Source: Candidatus Woesearchaeota archaeon (GTDB lineage Archaea; Nanobdellota; Nanobdellia; Pacearchaeales; GW2011-AR1). Taken from it: a stretch of DNA of 64,000 nt. The position numbers and the translations under genes were made by a program. Below the pieces are notes generated by a model. The model was not told the DNA's origin. It saw nothing but the letters and a program-made list of their open reading frames with translations, and searched no databases. Positions 4,557-38,669 of the stretch are shown here, in pieces. How positions within the stretch are numbered: the stretch's first letter is position 1; every line of letters begins with the position of its first letter. The stretch is taken from the NCBI GenBank assembly GCA_964576755.1, contig CAZNUV010000005.1:2762-66761 (forward strand). The letters are read 5' to 3'.

Positions 4557-7500
4557 TGATGGGCAAGAAGAGGGATAATAGTAAATTGGTAATTTTTATA
4601 ATTTTTATAATTAGTATTGTCCTTGTAAGTTTTTTAGTTTTAAGTTTATCTAATGATGTTGTTTGGATAGGGAATACTTTAAATTATAGTTCTATAGAAG
4701 ACACAGAGTTCTTACATAATTTTAGTGCAAACATAACTGGAACCGGATCAAATATAACTTTTTCTATTTCAGAAGGGGGAGGAAATAATGTTGAATGGAA
4801 TGGGGCAGTTGTTGATTATAGTGATATTTTTTCTTGGATTTTTATTTCAAATGCTTCTATTGGAAACTTAAGTATAAATGTAGTCAATGATAGTCAGACT
4901 GGGAAATTTTCTCTTCCTGTTAAGGTTGCTTGGACAAATACAAGTGAATCTCCTCCAAATAACAATTACGGAAGTGTTGTGGCTTTTACGTTTATAGTTA
5001 ATGCAACTAATGATGCGCCTAATTTTACAATAATTAATAATAGCTATAATCTCAGTGAAAATGAAGATTTTATTGCATATATTAATGCTAGTGATGAGGA
5101 GGAACATTACCCCCTAATTTTTAATATCACTTGGGAAGATACATGTATTCATGCTTCTTGGAGTACTAGAACTAATTGTAGTTTATTTGAGGCTTTTAAT
5201 TATTCAGATATTTCTACATTATTAAACTATACCCCTACAAATAATGATGTAGGAGTTTATTCTGCAAACATTTCGGTTATGGATTTTGGAAATAGCACTA
5301 GTTATGGTTGTCCACATGAGTATTGTGATGAAGCAACATATAACTTAAACAAAACTACTTATCATTCTCAACTAATTGAATTTAATATTCTTTCTTCTTT
5401 ATCTATAAATATTTCTAATTGTACAGGCCTTACATTATTTGAAGGTTCTGAATTTACTTGTAATATCAACATTACTACTCAAGGAGAAACAGACACAATT
5501 AATGTTTCTACATTGGCTTCTATTAGAAATTATGATGCTGGATATATCTCCAACTTAAGTTGGTTTCATGCAAATAGTTCTGAAACTGCAGATAATTTTT
5601 CAAAAACAGTATTAATTAATATAACTCCTCAAAATACTGAGGTTGGAAATTGGAGTATTAATTTTTCAACAATTGATATAAACTCTGGGGAGATTACAAG
5701 TGAGTTAATTTATCTTTATGTCAACCAAACAACTTCGTCTAGTCCAATTTTAGATGTGACTTATTTGACAAATAATCAAACTTCAGTTAATACTAACCCT
5801 GTAATTAATATTAGTGTTCAAGATAATGATTTTTTGATTCCAGATAAAGTGGACTCGTTTAATGAAACTCTTGTTTTCAATGTTCAGGTCTTGAATCGTT
5901 CTGATTTAAGCCAAGAATTATCTATAACTGGTTTTGATGTAGATATACTGCATATGCCGGTTGTAGAAAGTAACCATTTAACAAATCAAACTACTGCAAA
6001 AATTGATTTTACACCTCTAATAGGGGATGTAGGGGAATATACTATCAATTTAAGTGTAAGTGATAATTCTACTAATTTAGACCTTGATATGTTCAATTTG
6101 ACCATAGTTTCAAATAATTATCCTGATTGGAATCAAACAAATTATACATTCTATTTAACTGTTAATTCAACTTTATCAACAACAGAATCTCTTGAAGAAA
6201 TCTATGGGGTTATAAATTTGAGTGATACTTGGACTAATGATTCTGATGGAAATACCTTGACATTTACAAATTCTACAAGTGCTTTTCAGAGATTTAGTCT
6301 TTCAACAGGGGGAATACTTAATTTTACCCCATACAAGGAAGATGTTGGTTATTGGAATGTAAATATTACTGCAGATGATGGGTACTTAACAAATACCACT
6401 GAATTTTTCTTTAATATTTCAAATGTAAATTCTAATCCATTTATAGATAATTCCACTTTGTTAACAAATTCAAATGCTTCAGCGAGTGGCCTTGCTATAA
6501 TAACTCAAGAGGATAATTATACTCAAATTCTGATTAGTATATATGACGAAGATTTTAAAATAACAACCGCTCAAAAAGGAGTTTATAATGAATCTCTTGT
6601 TCCTACAACAATAATTGAAGGGATAAATTCTAGTTTGTTTGAATTTGAATTAATTACTTTACCTACACCATCATATCCAAATAAGACTATTTACCAAGCG
6701 TTGTTTACTCCTAGAAAAGATGATGTGGGCCTTTATAATGTAACTTTAAACATTACTGATAATTCTTCTGTGGTGGATTCATTTGTATTTAATATTACTA
6801 TAATTTCTTTAGACCATAATCCTGTTCTAGACAGTTCTATAAATCAAACTTCTGCAATAAACCAGAGTTTGTATTATCGAATTAATGCAACAGATATAGA
6901 GGATGGGAATACTACAATTAATGGGGGAAATACAAATTTTACATTTAATTATTCTATGTTATCTGGAACAAATTTATTTAATTCTACGACATTTAATTCC
7001 ACCACTGGAGAATTCAATATCACATTTAATGATTCACAATTTGGAACATATCACATTAATGTAACTGTAAATGATTCGGGAGGGTTAGAAGATTCTACTG
7101 ATTTTTGGATAAATGTTTATGGATTTCCTACAATAAATAGTCCGGGCATAGGCTATGATTTTAATTTAACAGAAAATGTTACATCTAATCTAAAATTTAC
7201 AGTGAACCATTCTGTTCAAGATAATCTTACTTATCTTTTTTATACAAATGATATTTTAAGATATAACCTTTCTTATTATGGGAATAATACTAATTTAACT
7301 TGGCAGTTTACTCCGAATTTTACTGAAGAAACTTATGGTAATTTAATAAATTTAACCCTGGTTGTTTTTCCCTCAAATTCTGATTTAGAAAACATGTCTA
7401 ATTTTAATATTACTCAAAGTTGGAGTTTAAATATAAGCCATTCAAATTATCCGATTAATTTTACTAGTTTTATTGGGAGTCAGTCTGCTAATTCTGACCA

Positions 7501-24851: not shown

Positions 24852-25181
24852 TAGTGCGCCGGGTAGTGGTGCTTCAGCAGTACAAAAATATACTATGGCA
24901 GATTTACAATCATTAGATGCAGGTATAACTAGATTAGAAGGCATTGTCTTGCCAGAATTAGTAAAACCATTTAGAGATATAAGAAAAAAACTTTAAGTCT
25001 TCTATATAAATTCTTATAAACTCTTTATTTTATTTAAAATTACCTAGCTAACTATGCAACAAGGATGCATGGAGCAGACTAGGCTACATGCTCTTTTACT
25101 AAAGCAGAAATGCTATAAAATACAGCTACAACAGAAATGAAGTGGCAATGAAGATAATTTCAAAGTAGAAGAGCTACTATG

Positions 25182-25272
25182 GCGGGCGTTCTATGTCAAT
25201 AGGCTTGAGAACAGGTCTAATGTCAATGGCAGGAATGACTTGACTAATGACAATGGTCGTCTTGTTGAATAA
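25182..25272 (+). repeat. DGR template repeat (TR)
   Basis: Intergenic copy of the VR, 23 nt upstream of the RT-like ORF. In the VR frame it reads RAFYVNRLENRSNVNGRNDLTNDNGRLVE* with seven AAY codons. Confidence 0.85.
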
Positions 25273-25295: not shown

Positions 25296-26522
25296 ATGTA
25301 TGAACAACTATGCTCACATGAAAATCTTTTATTAGCTTTTAAAAAAGCAAAAAAAGGAAAGACTAAGAAAGATTATATTATTAAATTTAAACGAAATTTA
25401 GAGAATAATTTAATAACTCTAAGACAGGAATTAATTTCTCAAACATATAAACCAAAACCACTTAAAACATTTATTGTTAGAGATCCAAAAACAAGAAAAA
25501 TTTCTAAATCTAAATTTAGAGATAGAATTATTCATCATGCTTTGATAAATATCATTGGAGAGAATAGCCTCAAAGATTTAATTTCTAAAATTTTAACTAA
25601 ATTAAAGGGTGATCGGGCAAGGGCTAAGATAATTGAAAAACAAATAGAATATACTGAGGATTGGAAAGAGAAAAAAGAAACCTCATTAGATCTTTTAAAT
25701 CATTTAATTGAAAAAAGCTTTATTGATAAGGAAGATATAATTAAACCCCTTGGAACATCTCAGATTTTTGCCCTCTACTGCTTTCCTACTACTCCAATCA
25801 TTTCAAAAAATGGAAAAATAAAGTATAGTTTAAATCGAAGAATTTATCCTAATTTTCTAAAAAAATTGGGTTTTATAAGATTACATCTTAGACGGGGGCT
25901 TTTTTATGTCATCCCTCGTGAAAGATTAATCCCTTCTTTACAAAATACTTTTTACTTGAAGCAGTACATTCTTGAAGAGATCGAAAAAACATTTCCAGTA
26001 GAGTGGGAACGATTTTTAAAGGAGCTTAAAAGGAAAAAAAGTCTATTAAATGAATACAATTCCTATAAAAATAAAAGTTATAAGCAGGAATTAAAATTTA
26101 ACATCTTGCTTTTGAATACAGATATCTCAGAGAATAATGTGGGGTATTTATATGGTGAAAGAACGTTTACCAATGATTTTCATAATTTTCTAAATAATCA
26201 GTTAGACTTAAAAAAATTAAATTTTCCTAGAAGTGTTAAAGCAAACATTAGCGAATATATGAAAAATATCTCTATAGTGTTTTTCTTCAAAGGAGAAAAT
26301 ACTACCAATATACAAAAGATTAATGACGTAGAACCAAAATTAAAGAGTGGGCTTTCAATAATCAAATGGACAGATTATTTGGATAAGAATCAAGAAGAAA
26401 TTGCATCTATATTTAAATTGGGTAATCTATCCGAATCTCGAGCAAAAAAATACTCAGAATTATTAATCAAAAAGATTGAAGTATATAGAAATGCCCTTAG
26501 AGAATTAAGAATTAATCTATAA
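25296..26522 (+). CDS. DGR-type reverse-transcriptase-like protein (N-terminal RT motifs present, no YxDD seen)
   Basis: Residues 1-90 match the DGR/retron-type RT N-terminus (ENLLLAFKKAKKGK...YKPKPLKTFIVRDPKTRKISKSKFRDRIIHHALINII). Later there is only faint colinearity (PLGTSQIFALY versus the canonical GxxxSQ motif). No DD pair occurs anywhere in the 408 aa. Confidence 0.65.
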   Translation: MYEQLCSHENLLLAFKKAKKGKTKKDYIIKFKRNLENNLITLRQELISQTYKPKPLKTFIVRDPKTRKISKSKFRDRIIHHALINIIGENSLKDLISKILTKLKGDRARAKIIEKQIEYTEDWKEKKETSLDLLNHLIEKSFIDKEDIIKPLGTSQIFALYCFPTTPIISKNGKIKYSLNRRIYPNFLKKLGFIRLHLRRGLFYVIPRERLIPSLQNTFYLKQYILEEIEKTFPVEWERFLKELKRKKSLLNEYNSYKNKSYKQELKFNILLLNTDISENNVGYLYGERTFTNDFHNFLNNQLDLKKLNFPRSVKANISEYMKNISIVFFFKGENTTNIQKINDVEPKLKSGLSIIKWTDYLDKNQEEIASIFKLGNLSESRAKKYSELLIKKIEVYRNALRELRINL

Positions 26523-26529
26523 AATACAT

Positions 26530-27687
26530 TTAACTTTCATTCCCCACAATCATAACACCCTTTTTAACAAGCTGGGCAATAACCTTCATCTGCTTTTCCA
26601 AAACATCAACACGTTCTTTTAAAATTTCTTTTTCATTTTCTGATCTAGCAAGTTGCTTTTCAATCTCTGTCTTTGTAACATCTACTAACATATCTTCCTC
26701 ACTAATAGTATCTCTCATGCCCAAAAACTCAGAATAATAATGAATCTCTTCTGATTTTTTCCAACCGAATCTATACTTTAAAGCAGATTCAGATTTATAC
26801 CTTGGAAGCCAATAACAGCAACTATTATGTCTAAAATCATATAAGGATAGTTTGGAATAATTTTCTCCTGCGGGACTTATTTTATCCCCAAGAACTCTCT
26901 TTGCTAATCTTTTCAAGTAGCGGTTTACAACCTGCGAACAGACGCTGAATAAATAATCACTTGATTCAAGATTTTTAGTTTTTACATACTCTTTAATAAG
27001 TTCTGAACAGAGCATTAATTTTATTCTTCTTCCAAAAGTTTTGCTCACTTCCTCTCTTATCTTTAATTCTTTGAAATCATTAAAAAAGTCTGAAACTTTA
27101 ACATTCACTAATTCTGTTGGAGACCTTATCCCTGTGTCAAATACAAACATCATCATCACCTTATATTCATGTTTCGATTCATCACATAATTTTTTCACTT
27201 CTTCTTCAGTTAAATAAACCCATTTTGGTTTTTCTGTTCTTGAATCAAGATCTAGGGTAATATCTGTAATTTCTATCTTCTGTTTTTTGCTTACTTTTTG
27301 ATGCCAGTGCCAGAATGCTTTGAAAACCTTCCCTTGAGTTTCAAGAGAGGTGTATGATTTTCCATCCACCCTCTTTATTCCCCCATTTCTCATCTCTGCA
27401 AAGAAAGTAATAATCTGATCTTCATTAACTTCTGTTAGCTTAATTACTCCATAAAATTCCTCAAATTTTTTAGCAAAGAATATCATCTTCTCCTTTAATG
27501 TAAAAAGTCTAGCAAAAGTTCTTGGACCCCTTAAACTCCCTGTTGCTATATTCAAACCTTTTTCCATATCATTAAGATATCTTAGAATTATTTCAGAATT
27601 CTCTACAGAAATATCTGGAATTCTATCTTTAACTCTTTCTTTCCATTTAAGGTATCTTTCTTTATGTTTCCACGGATCTATTTTCAT
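26530..27687 (-). CDS. Tyrosine recombinase / integrase
   Basis: Catalytic-domain pattern: FDTGIRSPTEL (Arg I), LYDFRHNSCCY (box II Arg-His), and FGW...IHYYSEF (GH/W...Y). Has a coiled-coil C-terminal tail. Sits next to the tRNA-Gln att site. Confidence 0.75.
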   Translation of the reverse strand: MKIDPWKHKERYLKWKERVKDRIPDISVENSEIILRYLNDMEKGLNIATGSLRGPRTFARLFTLKEKMIFFAKKFEEFYGVIKLTEVNEDQIITFFAEMRNGGIKRVDGKSYTSLETQGKVFKAFWHWHQKVSKKQKIEITDITLDLDSRTEKPKWVYLTEEEVKKLCDESKHEYKVMMMFVFDTGIRSPTELVNVKVSDFFNDFKELKIREEVSKTFGRRIKLMLCSELIKEYVKTKNLESSDYLFSVCSQVVNRYLKRLAKRVLGDKISPAGENYSKLSLYDFRHNSCCYWLPRYKSESALKYRFGWKKSEEIHYYSEFLGMRDTISEEDMLVDVTKTEIEKQLARSENEKEILKERVDVLEKQMKVIAQLVKKGVMIVGNES

Positions 27688-27775
27688 CTTAGCATAAAAC
27701 CCACCTGATTTATATTTTCGTGGCGGATTTATGCCGAAACAAACCTGAACCCTTGATTTTGGTCAAAAGGGTAAA

Positions 27776-27848
27776 TAGCCCCACCAGGATTCGAACCTGG
27801 GTCACAAGGTTCAGAACCTCGTATGCTTGACCACTACACTATGGGGCT
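27776..27848 (-). tRNA. tRNA-Gln (CTG)
   Basis: Minus-strand cloverleaf. Acceptor AGCCCCA/TGGGGCT (the A1-U72 pair is typical of archaeal tRNA-Gln), anticodon stem CGAGG/CCTTG with loop TTCTGAA, T-arm CCAGG-TTCGAAT-CCTGG. Confidence 0.85.
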
Positions 27849-27863
27849 ATAAGACAACCTAAC

Positions 27864-34136: not shown

Positions 34137-34182
34137 TACAATAAATTGTGCTGTTTTAATATAGGGAGTACAATATATTGTA
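34137..34182. promoter_or_regulatory. Two tandem NrdR-box-like palindromes
   Basis: tacaataaattgtg (34137-34150) and the perfect palindrome tacaatatattgta (34169-34182). Centres are 32 bp apart, 35 nt upstream of nrdR. Both resemble the acaCwAtATaTwGtgt NrdR-box consensus. Confidence 0.6.
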
Positions 34183-34216: not shown

Positions 34217-34657
34217 ATGAAATGTCCTTATTGTAATACTGAAGAAACAAAAGTAACTGATAAGAGAGATAGTCATGGGAATATTCGTAGAAGACGTGAA
34301 TGCTTAAAATGCGGTGAAAGATTTTCTACATATGAACGTATTGAGTTGGATTTAAATGTAATAAAAAAAGATGGGACTAGGGAAAAATTCAATAGAGATA
34401 AATTAATAAAAGGATTAGAAAAAGCATTTGAAAAAAGAACTTTAAGCACTGAAAAATTCGATAATCTTGCAAGCGAGATTGAATCTAAGATATATAAATC
34501 TTCTAAAAATAGGGAGATAAATTCTTCAAAGATTGGTCAGATTGTAATGGATAAAATAAAGAAGACAGATAAAATTGCATATATAAGATTTGCATCTGTT
34601 TATCGTGAGTTTGCAGATATAGATGATTTTAAACAGGAATTAAAAAATTTAAAATAA
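34217..34657 (+). CDS. nrdR: NrdR transcriptional repressor (zinc ribbon + ATP-cone)
   Basis: MKCPYCNTEETKVTDKRDS...RRRRECLKCGERFSTYE followed by an ATP-cone (VIKKDGTREKFNRDKL...). Confidence 0.9.
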   Translation: MKCPYCNTEETKVTDKRDSHGNIRRRRECLKCGERFSTYERIELDLNVIKKDGTREKFNRDKLIKGLEKAFEKRTLSTEKFDNLASEIESKIYKSSKNREINSSKIGQIVMDKIKKTDKIAYIRFASVYREFADIDDFKQELKNLK

Positions 34658-34686: not shown

Positions 34687-36762
34687 ATGGTTTCAAAAAT
34701 AAGAAAAAGAGATGGAGATATAGTTCCATTTAATAAAGAGAAAATCTTTAATGCAGTTTGGAAAGCTGCAAAAGCTGTTGGAGGCCATGATGAAGCAAAA
34801 GCAAGACATGTTGCAGAGATTATTATTGAAGAAATTGGGAAAAAATATGGAGAACATGGAATTCCTCGTGTAGAGGATGTTCAGGATACTGTTGAGAGTG
34901 TTTTAATTAAACAAGGCCATGATCAAACTGCAAAAGCATATATTTTATACAGAAAAAGTCATGAAGAACTTAGAAATGTTAAAGGTTTGTTTGATACTAT
35001 CGAGGCTGTAGAAGATTATATTGGTTTAAATGACTGGATGGTTAAAGAAAATTCTAATATGGGGTTTTCACTCCAAGGATTAAATAATTATATTGCTACA
35101 AAAATAATTACTAACTATTGGATGAGAAGAGTTTACCCAGAAGTAATAAGAAAGGTACACGAGTCTGGAGATTTACATATTCATGATTTGGGAACACTTG
35201 GAGCATACTGTGTGGGATGGGATTTAAAGGACTTACTTTCAATTGGATTTAAAGGAGTAAAAGGAAAAGTTGAATCCAAACCTGCAAAACATTTGAGAAC
35301 TGCTTTAATGCAGATAGTTAACTTTTTTTATACATTACAAGGAGAAACTGCAGGAGCACAAGCATTTTCAAATTTTGATACTCTTTTGGCCCCCTTTGTA
35401 AAATATGATAATCTTTCTTATGAAGAAGTTAAACAGGCAATGCAAGAATTTATTTTTAATTTAGCAGTTCCTACTCGTGTAGGTTTTCAAACTCCTTTTA
35501 CAAATATAACTATGGATTTGAAAGTTCCAAGTTATATGAAAGATGAACCAGTTATTATTGGTGGACAACCTCAAAAAGAAACTTATAAGGAATTTCAAAA
35601 AGAAGTTGAGATGATTAATAAAGCATTTGCAGAAGTCATGCTTGAAGGTGATGCTTCTGGAAGAGTTTTTACATTTCCAATACCTACCTATAATATTACT
35701 AAGGATTTTGATTGGGATAATCCAACCTATGATTTAATTTGGGAAATGGCAGCCAAGTATGGTATACCTTATTTTTCAAATTTTATTAATTCAGATATGA
35801 ATCCTGAAGATGCTCGTTCAATGTGTTGTCGTTTAAGATTAGACCAAACAGAATTAAGAAAACGTGGAGGAGGTTTATTTGGAGCTAATCCTCAAACAGG
35901 AAGTGTTGGTGTTGTTACAATCAACATGCCTAGACTTGGTTTTGTTGCATTAGATGAAGAAGATTATTTTACAAGATTAGACAGATTAATGGAACTTGCA
36001 AAAGAGAGTTTAGAAATTAAAAGAAAAGCATTGGAAAAATTTACTTTAACTGGATTGTATCCTTATTCTAAATTTTATTTAAGAATGGTTTATGAAAGAT
36101 TTGAGCATTATTGGAAAAATCATTTTTCTACAATTGGTTTACTGGGTTTAAATGAATCAATAATGAATTTTCTTTCTGGAGAAAATATTACAACCCCCAA
36201 GGGAAAAGAATTTGGCCTTAAAGTTTTAGAGTTTATGAGGGAAAAATTAGAACAATATCAAAATGAAACTGGAAATATTTATAATTTAGAAGCAACTCCT
36301 GGAGAGGGCACTACCTATAGATTTGCAAGGTTGGATAAAAAACGTTTTCCAAAAATTATTGTTGCAAATGAAAATGGGTTAACTACAGTTAATGCTAAAC
36401 CCTATTACACCAATTCAAGTCAATTACCAGTTAATTTTACAGATGATCTATTTGAAGCATTAGAACTTCAAGATGATTTTCAAACAAAATATACTGGAGG
36501 AACTGTATTTCATGCCTTTGTTGGTGAAAAATTGGACAAATCTGGAGTTAAGATTTTGGTAAAAAAAATTGCAGAACAATTTCATATGCCTTATTTTACT
36601 TTAACTCCAACATTTTCAATATGTCCGATTCACGGATATATTGCAGGAGACTGGAAGTATTGTCCTAAATGTGATAAAGAAAATGGTTATTCTGAAGAAA
36701 ATGATAACACAAGAATTGAAACTTTAAATGAAATTAAACAATTAAAAAAAGAGGAAAATTAA
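34687..36762 (+). CDS. nrdD: Anaerobic (class III) ribonucleoside-triphosphate reductase, large polypeptide without the glycyl-radical motif
   Basis: N-terminal ATP-cone (KIRKRDGDIVPFNKEKI), the NrdD core (NLEATPGEG, the active-site loop SMCCRLRL), and C-terminal Zn site residues CPIH...CPKC. The ORF stops before any RxxGY motif. Confidence 0.92.
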   Translation: MVSKIRKRDGDIVPFNKEKIFNAVWKAAKAVGGHDEAKARHVAEIIIEEIGKKYGEHGIPRVEDVQDTVESVLIKQGHDQTAKAYILYRKSHEELRNVKGLFDTIEAVEDYIGLNDWMVKENSNMGFSLQGLNNYIATKIITNYWMRRVYPEVIRKVHESGDLHIHDLGTLGAYCVGWDLKDLLSIGFKGVKGKVESKPAKHLRTALMQIVNFFYTLQGETAGAQAFSNFDTLLAPFVKYDNLSYEEVKQAMQEFIFNLAVPTRVGFQTPFTNITMDLKVPSYMKDEPVIIGGQPQKETYKEFQKEVEMINKAFAEVMLEGDASGRVFTFPIPTYNITKDFDWDNPTYDLIWEMAAKYGIPYFSNFINSDMNPEDARSMCCRLRLDQTELRKRGGGLFGANPQTGSVGVVTINMPRLGFVALDEEDYFTRLDRLMELAKESLEIKRKALEKFTLTGLYPYSKFYLRMVYERFEHYWKNHFSTIGLLGLNESIMNFLSGENITTPKGKEFGLKVLEFMREKLEQYQNETGNIYNLEATPGEGTTYRFARLDKKRFPKIIVANENGLTTVNAKPYYTNSSQLPVNFTDDLFEALELQDDFQTKYTGGTVFHAFVGEKLDKSGVKILVKKIAEQFHMPYFTLTPTFSICPIHGYIAGDWKYCPKCDKENGYSEENDNTRIETLNEIKQLKKEEN

Positions 36763-36772
36763 AGGAGGTTAA

Positions 36773-36892
36773 ATGGAAAGAACTAGATGTGAAAGATACA
36801 GCCGGGTTTGTGGATATCTTAGACCTGTTGAGCAATGGAATGAAGGAAAAGAAGCAGAGTTTAATGATAGAAAGACATTTAAGATGAACTAA
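36773..36892 (+). CDS. Stand-alone 39-aa NrdD glycyl-radical domain
   Basis: MERTRCERYSRVCGYLRPVEQWNEGKEAEFNDRKTFKMN carries the class III RNR glycyl-radical signature (YSRVxGY.RPV..WN.GK..EF.DRK). It is in a different frame from nrdD, has an in-frame TAA directly upstream, and a strong SD (AAGGAGGT) 4 nt before the ATG. Confidence 0.75.
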   Translation: MERTRCERYSRVCGYLRPVEQWNEGKEAEFNDRKTFKMN

Positions 36893-36909: not shown

Positions 36910-37626
36910 ATGAGAATAAAAGGATTGCAAAAATTAACTTTAATAGACTATCCTGGGAAAATTGCTTGCACTATTTTTTTACAAGGTTGCAATTTTAAAT
37001 GTGGTTTCTGCCATAATCCTGAACTTGTTTTAGAATCTTTTATAGATAAAAATAAGGAAATAGATTCAGAGGAGATTTTAGAATTTTTAAAAAAAAGAAA
37101 AAAGTATCTTGAAGCAGTTTGTATTACTGGAGGAGAACCATTAATAAGTTTGGATATAGATTTTTTAAATAAAATTAAAGATTTAGGATATTTAATAAAA
37201 ATTGATACTAATGGTTGTTTTCCAGAAAGATTACAAGAGATTATTAATTTAGGGTTAGTCGATTTTGTTTCTATGGATATTAAATCTAGTAAAGAGAATT
37301 ACCCTAGATTAACTGGAGTTTTAAATCCTGATTTTGAAAAAATAGAAAAATCAATAAAAATAATCTCTAAACTTCCAGAACATGAATTTAGAACAACTAT
37401 TTTAGAGGAGTTTCATTCTAGAAAAGATATTGGAGATTTAATTGATTGGATTTCTAAAATCGTTGAAAAGGGTAAAATCCAGAAGTTTGTCTTTCAAGGA
37501 TTTAAAAATAATGGAAAATTTATTGATAGTCGTTTTTCAAAATATACTAATACATCAGAGAAATATTTATTAGACCTAAAAGAATTGACTAATCATCTAA
37601 TCAATAAAGTAGAGGTAAGAGTTTAA
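36910..37626 (+). CDS. nrdG: Anaerobic RNR activating enzyme (radical SAM)
   Basis: SLIDYPGK-type N-terminus (TLIDYPGKIACTIF) and the radical-SAM cluster motif CNFKCGFCHN, plus GGEPL. Confidence 0.88.
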   Translation: MRIKGLQKLTLIDYPGKIACTIFLQGCNFKCGFCHNPELVLESFIDKNKEIDSEEILEFLKKRKKYLEAVCITGGEPLISLDIDFLNKIKDLGYLIKIDTNGCFPERLQEIINLGLVDFVSMDIKSSKENYPRLTGVLNPDFEKIEKSIKIISKLPEHEFRTTILEEFHSRKDIGDLIDWISKIVEKGKIQKFVFQGFKNNGKFIDSRFSKYTNTSEKYLLDLKELTNHLINKVEVRV

Positions 37627-38669
37627 TGATAATAGGTTTAACAGGAAGTTTAAGTGCTGGGAAGGGATTAGTTTCTGATTTCTTAAAACAAAAAGGTTTT
37701 GTTTATCTTTCCCTATCTAATGAATTAAGAGAGATATTAAAAGAGAATAAAATAACTCTCACTAGAGAAAACCTACAAAATTTTGGAAATAAATTAAGAG
37801 AAGAAAAAGGTTCTGGGGTTCTTGCAAAGATTGTTGTTGAAAAAATCAAAAATCAAAAATATGTTAATGCTATTGTGGATGGTATTAGAAATCCTGCTGA
37901 AGTGATTATCCTAAGACAACTAAAAAACTTTTTTCTTATTTCTGTAGATGCTCCTCAAGAAATTAGATTTAAAAGAATGGTTTCTCGTAATCGGGAAAGT
38001 GACCCGGTTACATGGGAAGATTTTTTAAAAGTAGATGCTCGTGATAAGGGTCTTGGTGAATCTGAAACTGGTCAAGGTGTAGGAAAATGTATGGAACTTG
38101 CGGATTTTACTTTAATTAATGATTCTAGTTTAGAAAAAGTTCAAGAAAAAGTAGAAAATTTGTATAAAGAAATTAAAGGAAAACTACCTAGGATAAGTTG
38201 GGATGAATATTTTATGGGTGTTGCTCTACTGTCTTCTAAAAGAAGCAAAGACCCGTCTACACAAGTTGGTGCTTGTATTGTTGATAAAAATAAAAAAATA
38301 GTTGGAACAGGTTATAATGGAGCTCCGAGAGGTATTCCTGATAATGAATTCCCTTGGCAAAGAGAAGGAGATTATTTAGAAACAAAATATGCTTATGTTT
38401 GCCATGCAGAACTTAATGCAATCTTGAATTCAACGAAAGAAAGTTTAGAAGGATGTACTCTTTATTGCACTCTTTTTCCATGTAATGAATGTGCAAAGGC
38501 AATCATTCAATCTGGAATAAAAAAAGTATTTTTTTTATCTAATAAATATAAGGATGACCCTTCTTGTATTGCTTCTAAAAAAATGTTATTTAGGGTTGGT
38601 ATTGAATTAGAAGAATTAAGCCCAGAAACAGATTTTATCTCTCTTGATTTTAGTGAGGCAAAAAAATAG
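37626..38669 (+). CDS. Fusion protein: P-loop nucleotide-kinase-like domain + dCMP deaminase
   Basis: N-terminal P-loop GLTGSLSAGKG with an adenylate/dNMP-kinase-like layout. The C-terminal half has CMP/dCMP deaminase zinc motifs (CHAELNA and PCNECAKAI). Confidence 0.8.
   Translation: MIIGLTGSLSAGKGLVSDFLKQKGFVYLSLSNELREILKENKITLTRENLQNFGNKLREEKGSGVLAKIVVEKIKNQKYVNAIVDGIRNPAEVIILRQLKNFFLISVDAPQEIRFKRMVSRNRESDPVTWEDFLKVDARDKGLGESETGQGVGKCMELADFTLINDSSLEKVQEKVENLYKEIKGKLPRISWDEYFMGVALLSSKRSKDPSTQVGACIVDKNKKIVGTGYNGAPRGIPDNEFPWQREGDYLETKYAYVCHAELNAILNSTKESLEGCTLYCTLFPCNECAKAIIQSGIKKVFFLSNKYKDDPSCIASKKMLFRVGIELEELSPETDFISLDFSEAKK

Follow-up and report, generated by a model that had tools for sequence, protein, structure and literature searches.

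Glycyl radical enzymes are, to our knowledge, thought to bear the radical on their own C-terminus, and the only exception that we know of is GrcA, a backup for pyruvate formate-lyase (PFL). In the literature on NrdD, the class III ribonucleotide reductase (RNR), the term "glycyl radical domain" takes in the Zn ribbon as well as the loop that carries the radical glycine (Gly loop). In fused NrdDs, for which the structures from T. maritima (4COI/4U3E) and P. copri (8P23) served as our references, the Zn ribbon lies between the last barrel strand and a C-terminal loop that reaches down inside the barrel to the finger loop; the glycine is completely buried there and has to move outward for activation (PMC4493059). 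The C-terminal domain of P. copri NrdD is highly mobile, its order and disorder being tied to regulation by ATP and dATP (PMC11226230). Here we analyze a class III RNR locus in a stretch of 64,000 nucleotides (nt) from a Candidatus Woesearchaeota archaeon (contig CAZNUV010000005.1, positions 2,762 to 66,761), referred to below as the window. The large NrdD chain encoded there stops after the Zn ribbon, and the Gly loop is encoded by a small gene of its own immediately downstream. We propose, with a probability of roughly 70%, that the locus encodes an obligate two-polypeptide class III RNR with its radical-bearing part in trans, a reading that we draw from the sequence and its relatives.

The Gly loop of NrdD is encoded as a separate gene

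The large chain is an open reading frame (ORF) of 691 amino acids (aa) on the + strand (34687..36762, TAA stop). It matches the Pfam model NRDD (PF13597) over profile positions 1-531 of 562 (E 2.8e-181) and the NCBIfam model PRK08270 with 1035 bits (cutoff 548), and matches NrdDs in the PDB with E down to 8.5e-38. Pfam assigns an ATP-cone (aa 4-94) and the NRDD barrel (aa 121-666), while motif reading places the finger-loop MCCR at aa 379-382 (nt 35821-35832) and the Zn ribbon C646/H649/C659/C662 at nt 36622-36672. The MCCR motif is invariant in the alignment with relatives; the motif classes of the finger loop (MGCR or MCCR) have been described previously (PMC9669993). At the end of the chain, CPIH (646-649) and GYIAGDWKYCPKC (659-662) are followed by a low-complexity tail of 29 aa, DKENGYSEENDNTRIETLNEIKQLKKEEN (aa 663-691, nt 36673-36759), and then by TAA. 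All four Zn ligands, the type of which resembles the CxxxHx6CxxC of T. maritima NrdD (PMC4493059), remain on the large chain, and what is split off is solely the Gly loop with the C-terminal tail. The glycyl-radical motif RxxGY is absent from the whole 691-aa ORF.

The loop, reading RVCGY, resides on a 39-aa ORF, MERTRCERYSRVCGYLRPVEQWNEGKEAEFNDRKTFKMN (36773..36892, + strand), which matches NRDD positions 531-562 of 562 (E 1.2e-10) and has G14 (codon 36812-36814) as its predicted radical glycine. Together the two ORFs tile the Pfam NRDD model end to end, as they do the NCBIfam models PRK08270 and TIGR02487, and this tiling is far beyond chance. Compared with solved NrdDs, a profile made from the peptide aligned to their last ~30 residues, namely the Gly loops of P. 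copri NrdD (8p23, 712-737) and T. maritima NrdD (4coi, 611-644), with the radical glycine included in both. At a maximum E of 0.01, PF13597 (NRDD) was the only Pfam match of the peptide, and PF01228 (Gly_radical) was not matched. The locus shows all sequence hallmarks of a class III RNR except a loop on the same chain. Neither a second nrdD nor a second copy of the peptide was found in the 64-kb window.

The junction between the two genes is TAA AGGAGGT TAA ATG, with 10 nt separating the stop of the large ORF (36760-62) from the ATG of the peptide gene (36773). The two frames differ, (36773-34687) mod 3 being 1. A Shine-Dalgarno (SD) sequence, AGGAGGT (36763..36769, + strand), is located 3 nt 5' of the ATG, which is immediately preceded by an in-frame TAA (36770-72). 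A preliminary description, made from the letters alone, had the NrdD ORF ending at 36762 after CPIH...CPKC and a low-complexity tail, without RxxGY, and a 39-aa ORF 10 nt later in another frame behind an in-frame TAA; we find the same features in the sequence. Its translation of the small ORF was correct, and the Pfam match bears out its identification of the product as the glycyl-radical segment. The SD sequence that it reported is also present; however, the reported spacing of 4 nt applies only to a GGAGG core and not to AGGAGGT. The in-frame TAA matters for the possibility of recoding, in which a programmed frameshift or stop read-through would yield a normal fused NrdD. Since this TAA abuts the ATG in the peptide frame, it ends translation by any ribosome that shifted before the stop of the large ORF, and such a frameshift cannot fuse the two ORFs.

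Conservation of the split in related genomes

We found the peptide unchanged, with an identical 10-nt junction and with nrdG 3' of it, on 11 contigs that stem from independent samples (ENA, Logan and JGI). Scanning species-representative genomes yielded 31 related nrdD loci, of which 21 are split in the order large ORF, peptide, nrdG, with the loop as a separate short ORF. These comprise 19 loci from Woese-, Pace- and Nanoarchaeota (74-81% identity) and two from Patescibacteria (62%). Nine loci are fused (60-64% identity), including those of Bacteroidales, Magasanikbacterium and two archaeal metagenome-assembled genomes (MAGs), and these read CPKC-x2-7-CEVYSRxVGY uninterrupted across the break point. 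The preliminary description had favored a genuine two-polypeptide enzyme over a frameshift error, had suggested a survey of related archaea for the same split, and had held that a single split contig among contiguous relatives would speak against it. The opposite is seen: the split recurs, with variable junctions, in 21 related genomes, and the two-polypeptide proposal gains further from the 11 contigs, the SD sequence, the selection on the peptide and 45 of the best 80 metagenome loci (see below). The relatives were rightly presumed to be archaea, the closest being Woese-, Pace- and Nanoarchaeota.

The same data dispose of a sequencing or assembly error or a decaying pseudogene, explanations for which nothing speaks beyond how frequent indels are a priori in metagenome assemblies that are AT-rich. 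The identical junction came from different assemblers as well as independent samples, the split is kept in relatives with different junction DNA that have diverged to 74-81% aa identity, and both parts are strongly conserved. With 11 contigs, 21 split relatives and varied junctions, we consider this explanation refuted, leaving it a negligible probability.

In the 21 split loci, the two ORFs overlap by as much as 23 nt or lie as far as 62 nt apart, and all three frame offsets are in use. Sixteen of these loci have an SD sequence of the GGAGG/GAGGT/AGGAG type 4-8 nt 5' of the start, and 19 have one within 20 nt; L006 and L013 have only a weak 4-nt match. Where the genes overlap, the SD sequence is encoded within the tail of the large ORF as "...GGENG". 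No single recoding mechanism fits such a range of offsets, overlaps and gaps, and conservation of the SD sequence and ATG also speaks against recoding. In favor of recoding, both ORFs of one relative (L024) share a frame and are parted by a lone in-frame TAG followed by ATG. Overall, we regard recoding as very improbable.

The peptide core is under purifying selection, with a ratio of non-synonymous to synonymous substitution rates (dN/dS) of ~0.14 and an identity of 0.42 at third codon positions vs 0.74-0.78 at positions 1 and 2. After CPxC, the tail of the large chain runs from ~10 to ~110 residues among the relatives and is not conserved past a loose D-x-E-x-G-Y start. Such variation in length and composition resembles an unconstrained linker remnant and is a point for neutral fission. 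According to this explanation, an insertion with a stop codon and a start codon went to fixation at the boundary of Zn ribbon and Gly loop, being tolerated since the loop holds tightly to the barrel in any case; the result would be a permanent complex that works like the fused enzyme and has no role in exchange or repair. The peptide gene is, moreover, always adjacent and translationally coupled in cellular genomes, and one NrdD subfamily holds both fused and split forms. There is also a precedent in NrdJa/NrdJb, a functional split RNR for which no adaptive reason is known (PMC4520616).

In a neighbor-joining tree, the split forms from DPANN group as one clade. Its deep nodes are weak (46-53% support), and it cannot settle whether the split in Patescibacteria (L016/L017) and that in DPANN have one origin; the D-x-E-x-G-Y tail start common to both hints at a single one.

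Inteins are frequent in this nrdD family. The large ORFs of L024 (3001-6015), L026 (3001-7290), L027 (265-5283), L028 and L029 contain one to three of them (Intein_splicing and LAGLIDADG matches) and reach 1004-1672 aa, but they still end before the Gly loop and keep a separate peptide, which is a further argument against error or decay. The presence of inteins raises the idea that the tail and the N-terminus of the peptide form a split intein or a ligation handle by which the chains are re-fused after translation. Against it, Pfam shows no intein or Hint match in either the large ORF or the peptide of the window, the 29-aa low-complexity tail is not conserved in relatives, and just 2-5 residues precede the conserved peptide core, which is far too short for a C-intein. 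Post-translational joining is therefore scarcely credible.

Two other loci from the scan merit mention. In L025 (2971-5413) from Patescibacteria, which has a fused Gly loop, nrdD is broken further upstream, with a stop at 4791 and a continuation in another frame from ~4940, before YYTNSS; an intron, a frameshift and an assembly error are all conceivable causes. The nrdD of L031 (2989-4977), from a rumen MAG, is 52% identical to that of the window and ends in a similar tail (CPKCDDEMIYKKK...), and neither a peptide gene nor nrdG was found within 3 kb of it.

Breadth of the peptide family and a second fission

Searching a collection of 5.8 billion proteins with the 39-aa peptide plus one extra C-terminal K as the query identified 28 close homologs, all 39-69 aa long. 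When the peptide profile was run against 1.84 billion cluster representatives, 4828 matches were obtained at E<=1e-3 and 1975 at E<=1e-10. Among the best 150 of the 4828, 149 are 41-149 aa in length (median 61), and these all start with M, V or L, which indicates that they are complete small ORFs rather than fragments from contig edges. A 418-aa member of a peptide cluster (P0181) was rejected as a clustering artefact, being an unrelated protease-like sequence.

Genomic context was examined for the best 80 of at least 591 metagenome loci. Forty-five are of the split type and have the large subunit next to the peptide gene, a further 16 are fused, five are orphans and the remaining 14 are unassigned or at a contig edge. 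Predominance of the split form in the closest metagenome relatives is not what neutral fission would lead one to expect. Neither is its repeated occurrence: in one metagenome locus (L228, 3983-7327), the large ORF of 653 aa, 46% identical to that of the window and matching profile positions 1-525, breaks off within the second CxxC of its Zn ribbon (...SECPIEI*). The gene for the 40-aa peptide of this locus (profile 526-562) is located upstream of the large ORF, and nrdG is downstream. Because both break point and gene order differ from those in the window, the Gly loop must have been split off at least twice. A peptide gene upstream of the large ORF is equally hard to reconcile with recoding. 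The L228 peptide begins MVACGLKCE, and to judge from its residues it may supply one of the Zn ligands. This locus also has a ferredoxin gene upstream and two small ORFs between nrdD and nrdG.

Many stand-alone peptides, although not that of the window, end in Cys-rich tails (CGC, CKC, SDC, CETC or CGCGE; for example P0005, P0016, P0017, P0019 and P0021 among the proteins and L002, L005, L009 and L016 among the loci). They bring to mind the tails that act as redox shuttles in class I and class II RNRs. Three proteins (P0029, P0036 and P0069) contain a tandem internal duplication of the Gly-loop segment, with EVYSRVVGYLSPVSHWNEGKKEEW, for instance, occurring twice; such duplications may be real or may be assembly artefacts.

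Stand-alone peptides in viral contigs

The peptide profile detected 281 stretches in IMG/VR, the best 80 of which were examined (loci L118-L196; for example L120, 10001-10111; L162, 10001-10114; L182, 10001-10114). The loop is in a short ORF in 68 of the 80. In 69 of the 80, tblastn over as much as 10 kb to either side (14 kb of sequence on average) found neither the NrdD barrel nor NrdG, and in these tailed-virus contigs the peptide gene would stand by itself. In four viral loci that were sampled, those neighbors that could be named with PHROGs encode terminase, portal, major head, tape-measure and replication proteins. No PHROGs family exists for the peptide, which matches just the C-terminal end of phrog_487 (NrdD). 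In the viral orphans, the ATG usually lies 4-10 codons 5' of the conserved Cys, and their cores, represented by 56 distinct DNA sequences, have a dN/dS of 0.17.

A related case is the archaeal virus ANMV-1 (GenBank KP703175.1, 25525-25959), where a 144-aa protein annotated as nrdD (AJP62049.1) consists of a Zn ribbon and a Gly loop, the latter matching the window peptide at 68% identity across 31 aa. Neither barrel nor activase was found anywhere in the 38.5-kb record. Unlike the window peptide, this protein also includes a CxxC...CxxC Zn ribbon and is thus a whole glycyl radical domain. The gene was published as an oxygen-sensitive RNR, the presence of the C-terminal module alone not being remarked upon (PMC4372165).

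Purifying selection on viral genes for the peptide alone indicates that the peptide is of value in trans. That such selected genes are common in viral contigs is a third observation that neutral fission does not predict; if that explanation holds, the viral peptides would have to serve otherwise, e.g., as GrcA-style spares for fused host enzymes. Taken with the points in its favor given above, neutral fission remains a serious rival to the idea of a replaceable module, although we think it unlikely to be the correct explanation. The data presented to this point document the gene architecture, its conservation and recurrence, and the selection acting on the peptide.

Gene neighborhood

The split nrdD lies in a + strand run of genes for dNTP metabolism: thyX, tmk, nrdR, nrdD, the 39-aa ORF, nrdG, a kinase-dCMP-deaminase fusion, tRNA-Lys and tdk. 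Archaeal RNA polymerase genes are found 3' of the locus. The activase gene nrdG (36910..37626, + strand, 238 aa) begins 17 nt 3' of the peptide gene and encodes a radical-SAM protein (NCBIfam TIGR02495, NrdG2, 197 bits vs a cutoff of 131; Pfam Radical_SAM). Upstream of nrdD, nrdR (34217..34657, + strand) encodes a 146-aa repressor of RNR genes with a Zn ribbon (Pfam Zn_ribbon_NrdR, E 8.8e-17) and an ATP-cone (E 4e-22). NrdR is usually a bacterial regulator, and its gene is present here in an archaeal genome. Two palindromes read from the sequence 5' of nrdR, acaataaattgt (34138-34149) and acaatatattgt (34170-34181), have 32 bp between their centers (34138..34181, + strand); they appear similar to the NrdR box and form a putative operator of the operon.

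The ORF that follows nrdG (37626-38669) overlaps its stop and encodes a 347-aa fusion of a P-loop kinase-like domain (AAA_18/AAA_17/CoaE-like) to dCMP deaminase, within the cluster thyX-tmk-nrdR-nrdD-nrdG-dcd-tdk. Elsewhere in the window, an RNA matching Rfam RT-16 (25043-25182; 65.6 bits vs a gathering score of 50) adjoins a 408-aa ORF without a Pfam match (25296-26522). It is followed by a minus-strand tyrosine integrase (26530-27687) and tRNA-Gln (27775-27849), and this may be an integrated element.

Discussion

In the window, the chain is interrupted precisely at the hinge that joins the Zn ribbon to the loop, and a heteromeric enzyme is the most economical reading of a break in this place. 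The 691-aa chain would comprise the ATP-cone, a barrel of ten strands, the finger loop whose MCCR motif holds the thiyl-radical cysteine, and the Zn ribbon. To these, the 39-aa peptide would add the buried loop with radical glycine G14 and a short C-terminal segment, the counterpart of which crosses the top of the barrel in fused enzymes. Made from its own start codon by coupled translation, with the SD sequence at or inside the end of the large ORF, the peptide would dock into the barrel non-covalently, and the NrdG encoded next to it would place the glycyl radical on G14. The radical would then move to the MCCR cysteine, and catalysis would proceed as in fused NrdDs. Non-covalent assembly, activation by NrdG and activity of the split enzyme are what we infer from the layout of the locus.

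If the radical segment is a separate small molecule, it could for that reason be replaceable: a peptide cleaved by oxygen might be discarded and a new one installed without remaking the 80-kDa chain, and viruses might exploit this modularity by encoding the peptide alone. We put the chances of this extension, the replacement part of which the preliminary description had raised by analogy with GrcA/YfiD, at somewhat less than even; recurrent fission and the selected viral orphans are consistent with it. A bolder version is more tentative still. In it, the peptide of ~40 aa would be a freely exchangeable, protein-derived radical cofactor for ribonucleotide reduction and the first spare-part system outside the formate lyases. 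Cells with a split NrdD would throw away peptide cleaved by oxygen and load the 80-kDa barrel anew, and the lone peptide gene in tailed viruses of anaerobes would be a minimal auxiliary metabolic gene that re-arms or boosts the class III RNR of the host during infection.

Several points weigh against the two-polypeptide enzyme with a radical peptide in trans and what we build on it. On a peptide of 39 aa, a free glycyl radical would not be stable, and activation probably needs the assembled complex, which weakens a simple picture of a "pre-charged spare part". The genome may have a second, fused nrdD outside the 64-kb window. Our lists of the top 80 loci and top 150 proteins were ranked by a profile of the split peptide, so that stand-alone forms are over-represented in them. 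The absence of NrdD from the viral loci is based on one tblastn query and at most 20 kb of fragmentary contigs.

If our reading is true, this would be the first case of a glycyl radical enzyme that has the cofactor-bearing element in trans, as an obligate, separately encoded peptide of 40 residues. Neither split NrdD nor stand-alone radical peptides of the NrdD type were found to be described in the searchable literature, a body that has most subscription journals outside it. The split enzyme would offer a minimal system in which to follow recognition of the Gly loop by activases, insertion of the loop into the barrel and the influence of ATP-cone signals on loop dynamics. For anaerobes with small genomes (DPANN, Patescibacteria), it is a possible cheap way to survive transient oxygen. 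The peptide-only viral genes are possibly very small auxiliary metabolic genes, which annotation misses or calls a full "nrdD", and annotation pipelines should stop marking loci of this kind as truncated or fragmentary NrdD.

Among known systems, the closest is the fused class III RNR of the PRK08270/MCCR double-cysteine type. The window shares with it the ATP-cone, the barrel, MCCR, the C-x2-H...C-x2-C Zn ribbon, the Gly loop SRVxGYxRPVxxWNxGK and an adjacent NrdG, and fused relatives are 60-64% identical to it over the barrel. The difference is that the window chain is broken between Zn ribbon and Gly loop, has a variable low-complexity tail, and leaves the loop to a gene with its own SD sequence and ATG.

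In being small stand-alone proteins that reproduce the C-terminal radical segment of a glycyl radical enzyme, the PFL spare parts GrcA/YfiD of E. coli and Y06I of phage T4 resemble the window peptide. GrcA/Y06I and the NrdD-type peptide each occur in a cellular and a virus-encoded version, and each suggests repair following cleavage by oxygen (PMC8683613; reference list of PMC12338860). GrcA, however, is of the PFL type and has 127 aa with a disordered N-terminus, whereas the window peptide is of the NrdD type and has about 40 aa. GrcA also serves as a backup where the enzyme retains a radical domain of its own, while the cellular NrdD peptide, as the only copy of the loop, would be an obligate subunit; the adjacent large ORF lacks the loop, and coexistence with a full-length enzyme, as for GrcA, is not seen in the window. 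According to a 2026 review, formate lyases constitute the sole class of glycyl radical enzymes with known spare-part proteins (PMC13450708).

The gene arrangement itself has a parallel in the class II RNR NrdJa/NrdJb of Pseudomonas aeruginosa, where the catalytic subunit is likewise encoded by two adjacent genes with the C-terminal module on the second. Both polypeptides are required there (PMC4520616), and the split NrdD of the window would presumably need both of its own. NrdJ differs in being B12-dependent, and its NrdJb is a sizeable protein that carries the reducing cysteine tail, whereas the 39-aa peptide of the window would carry the radical.

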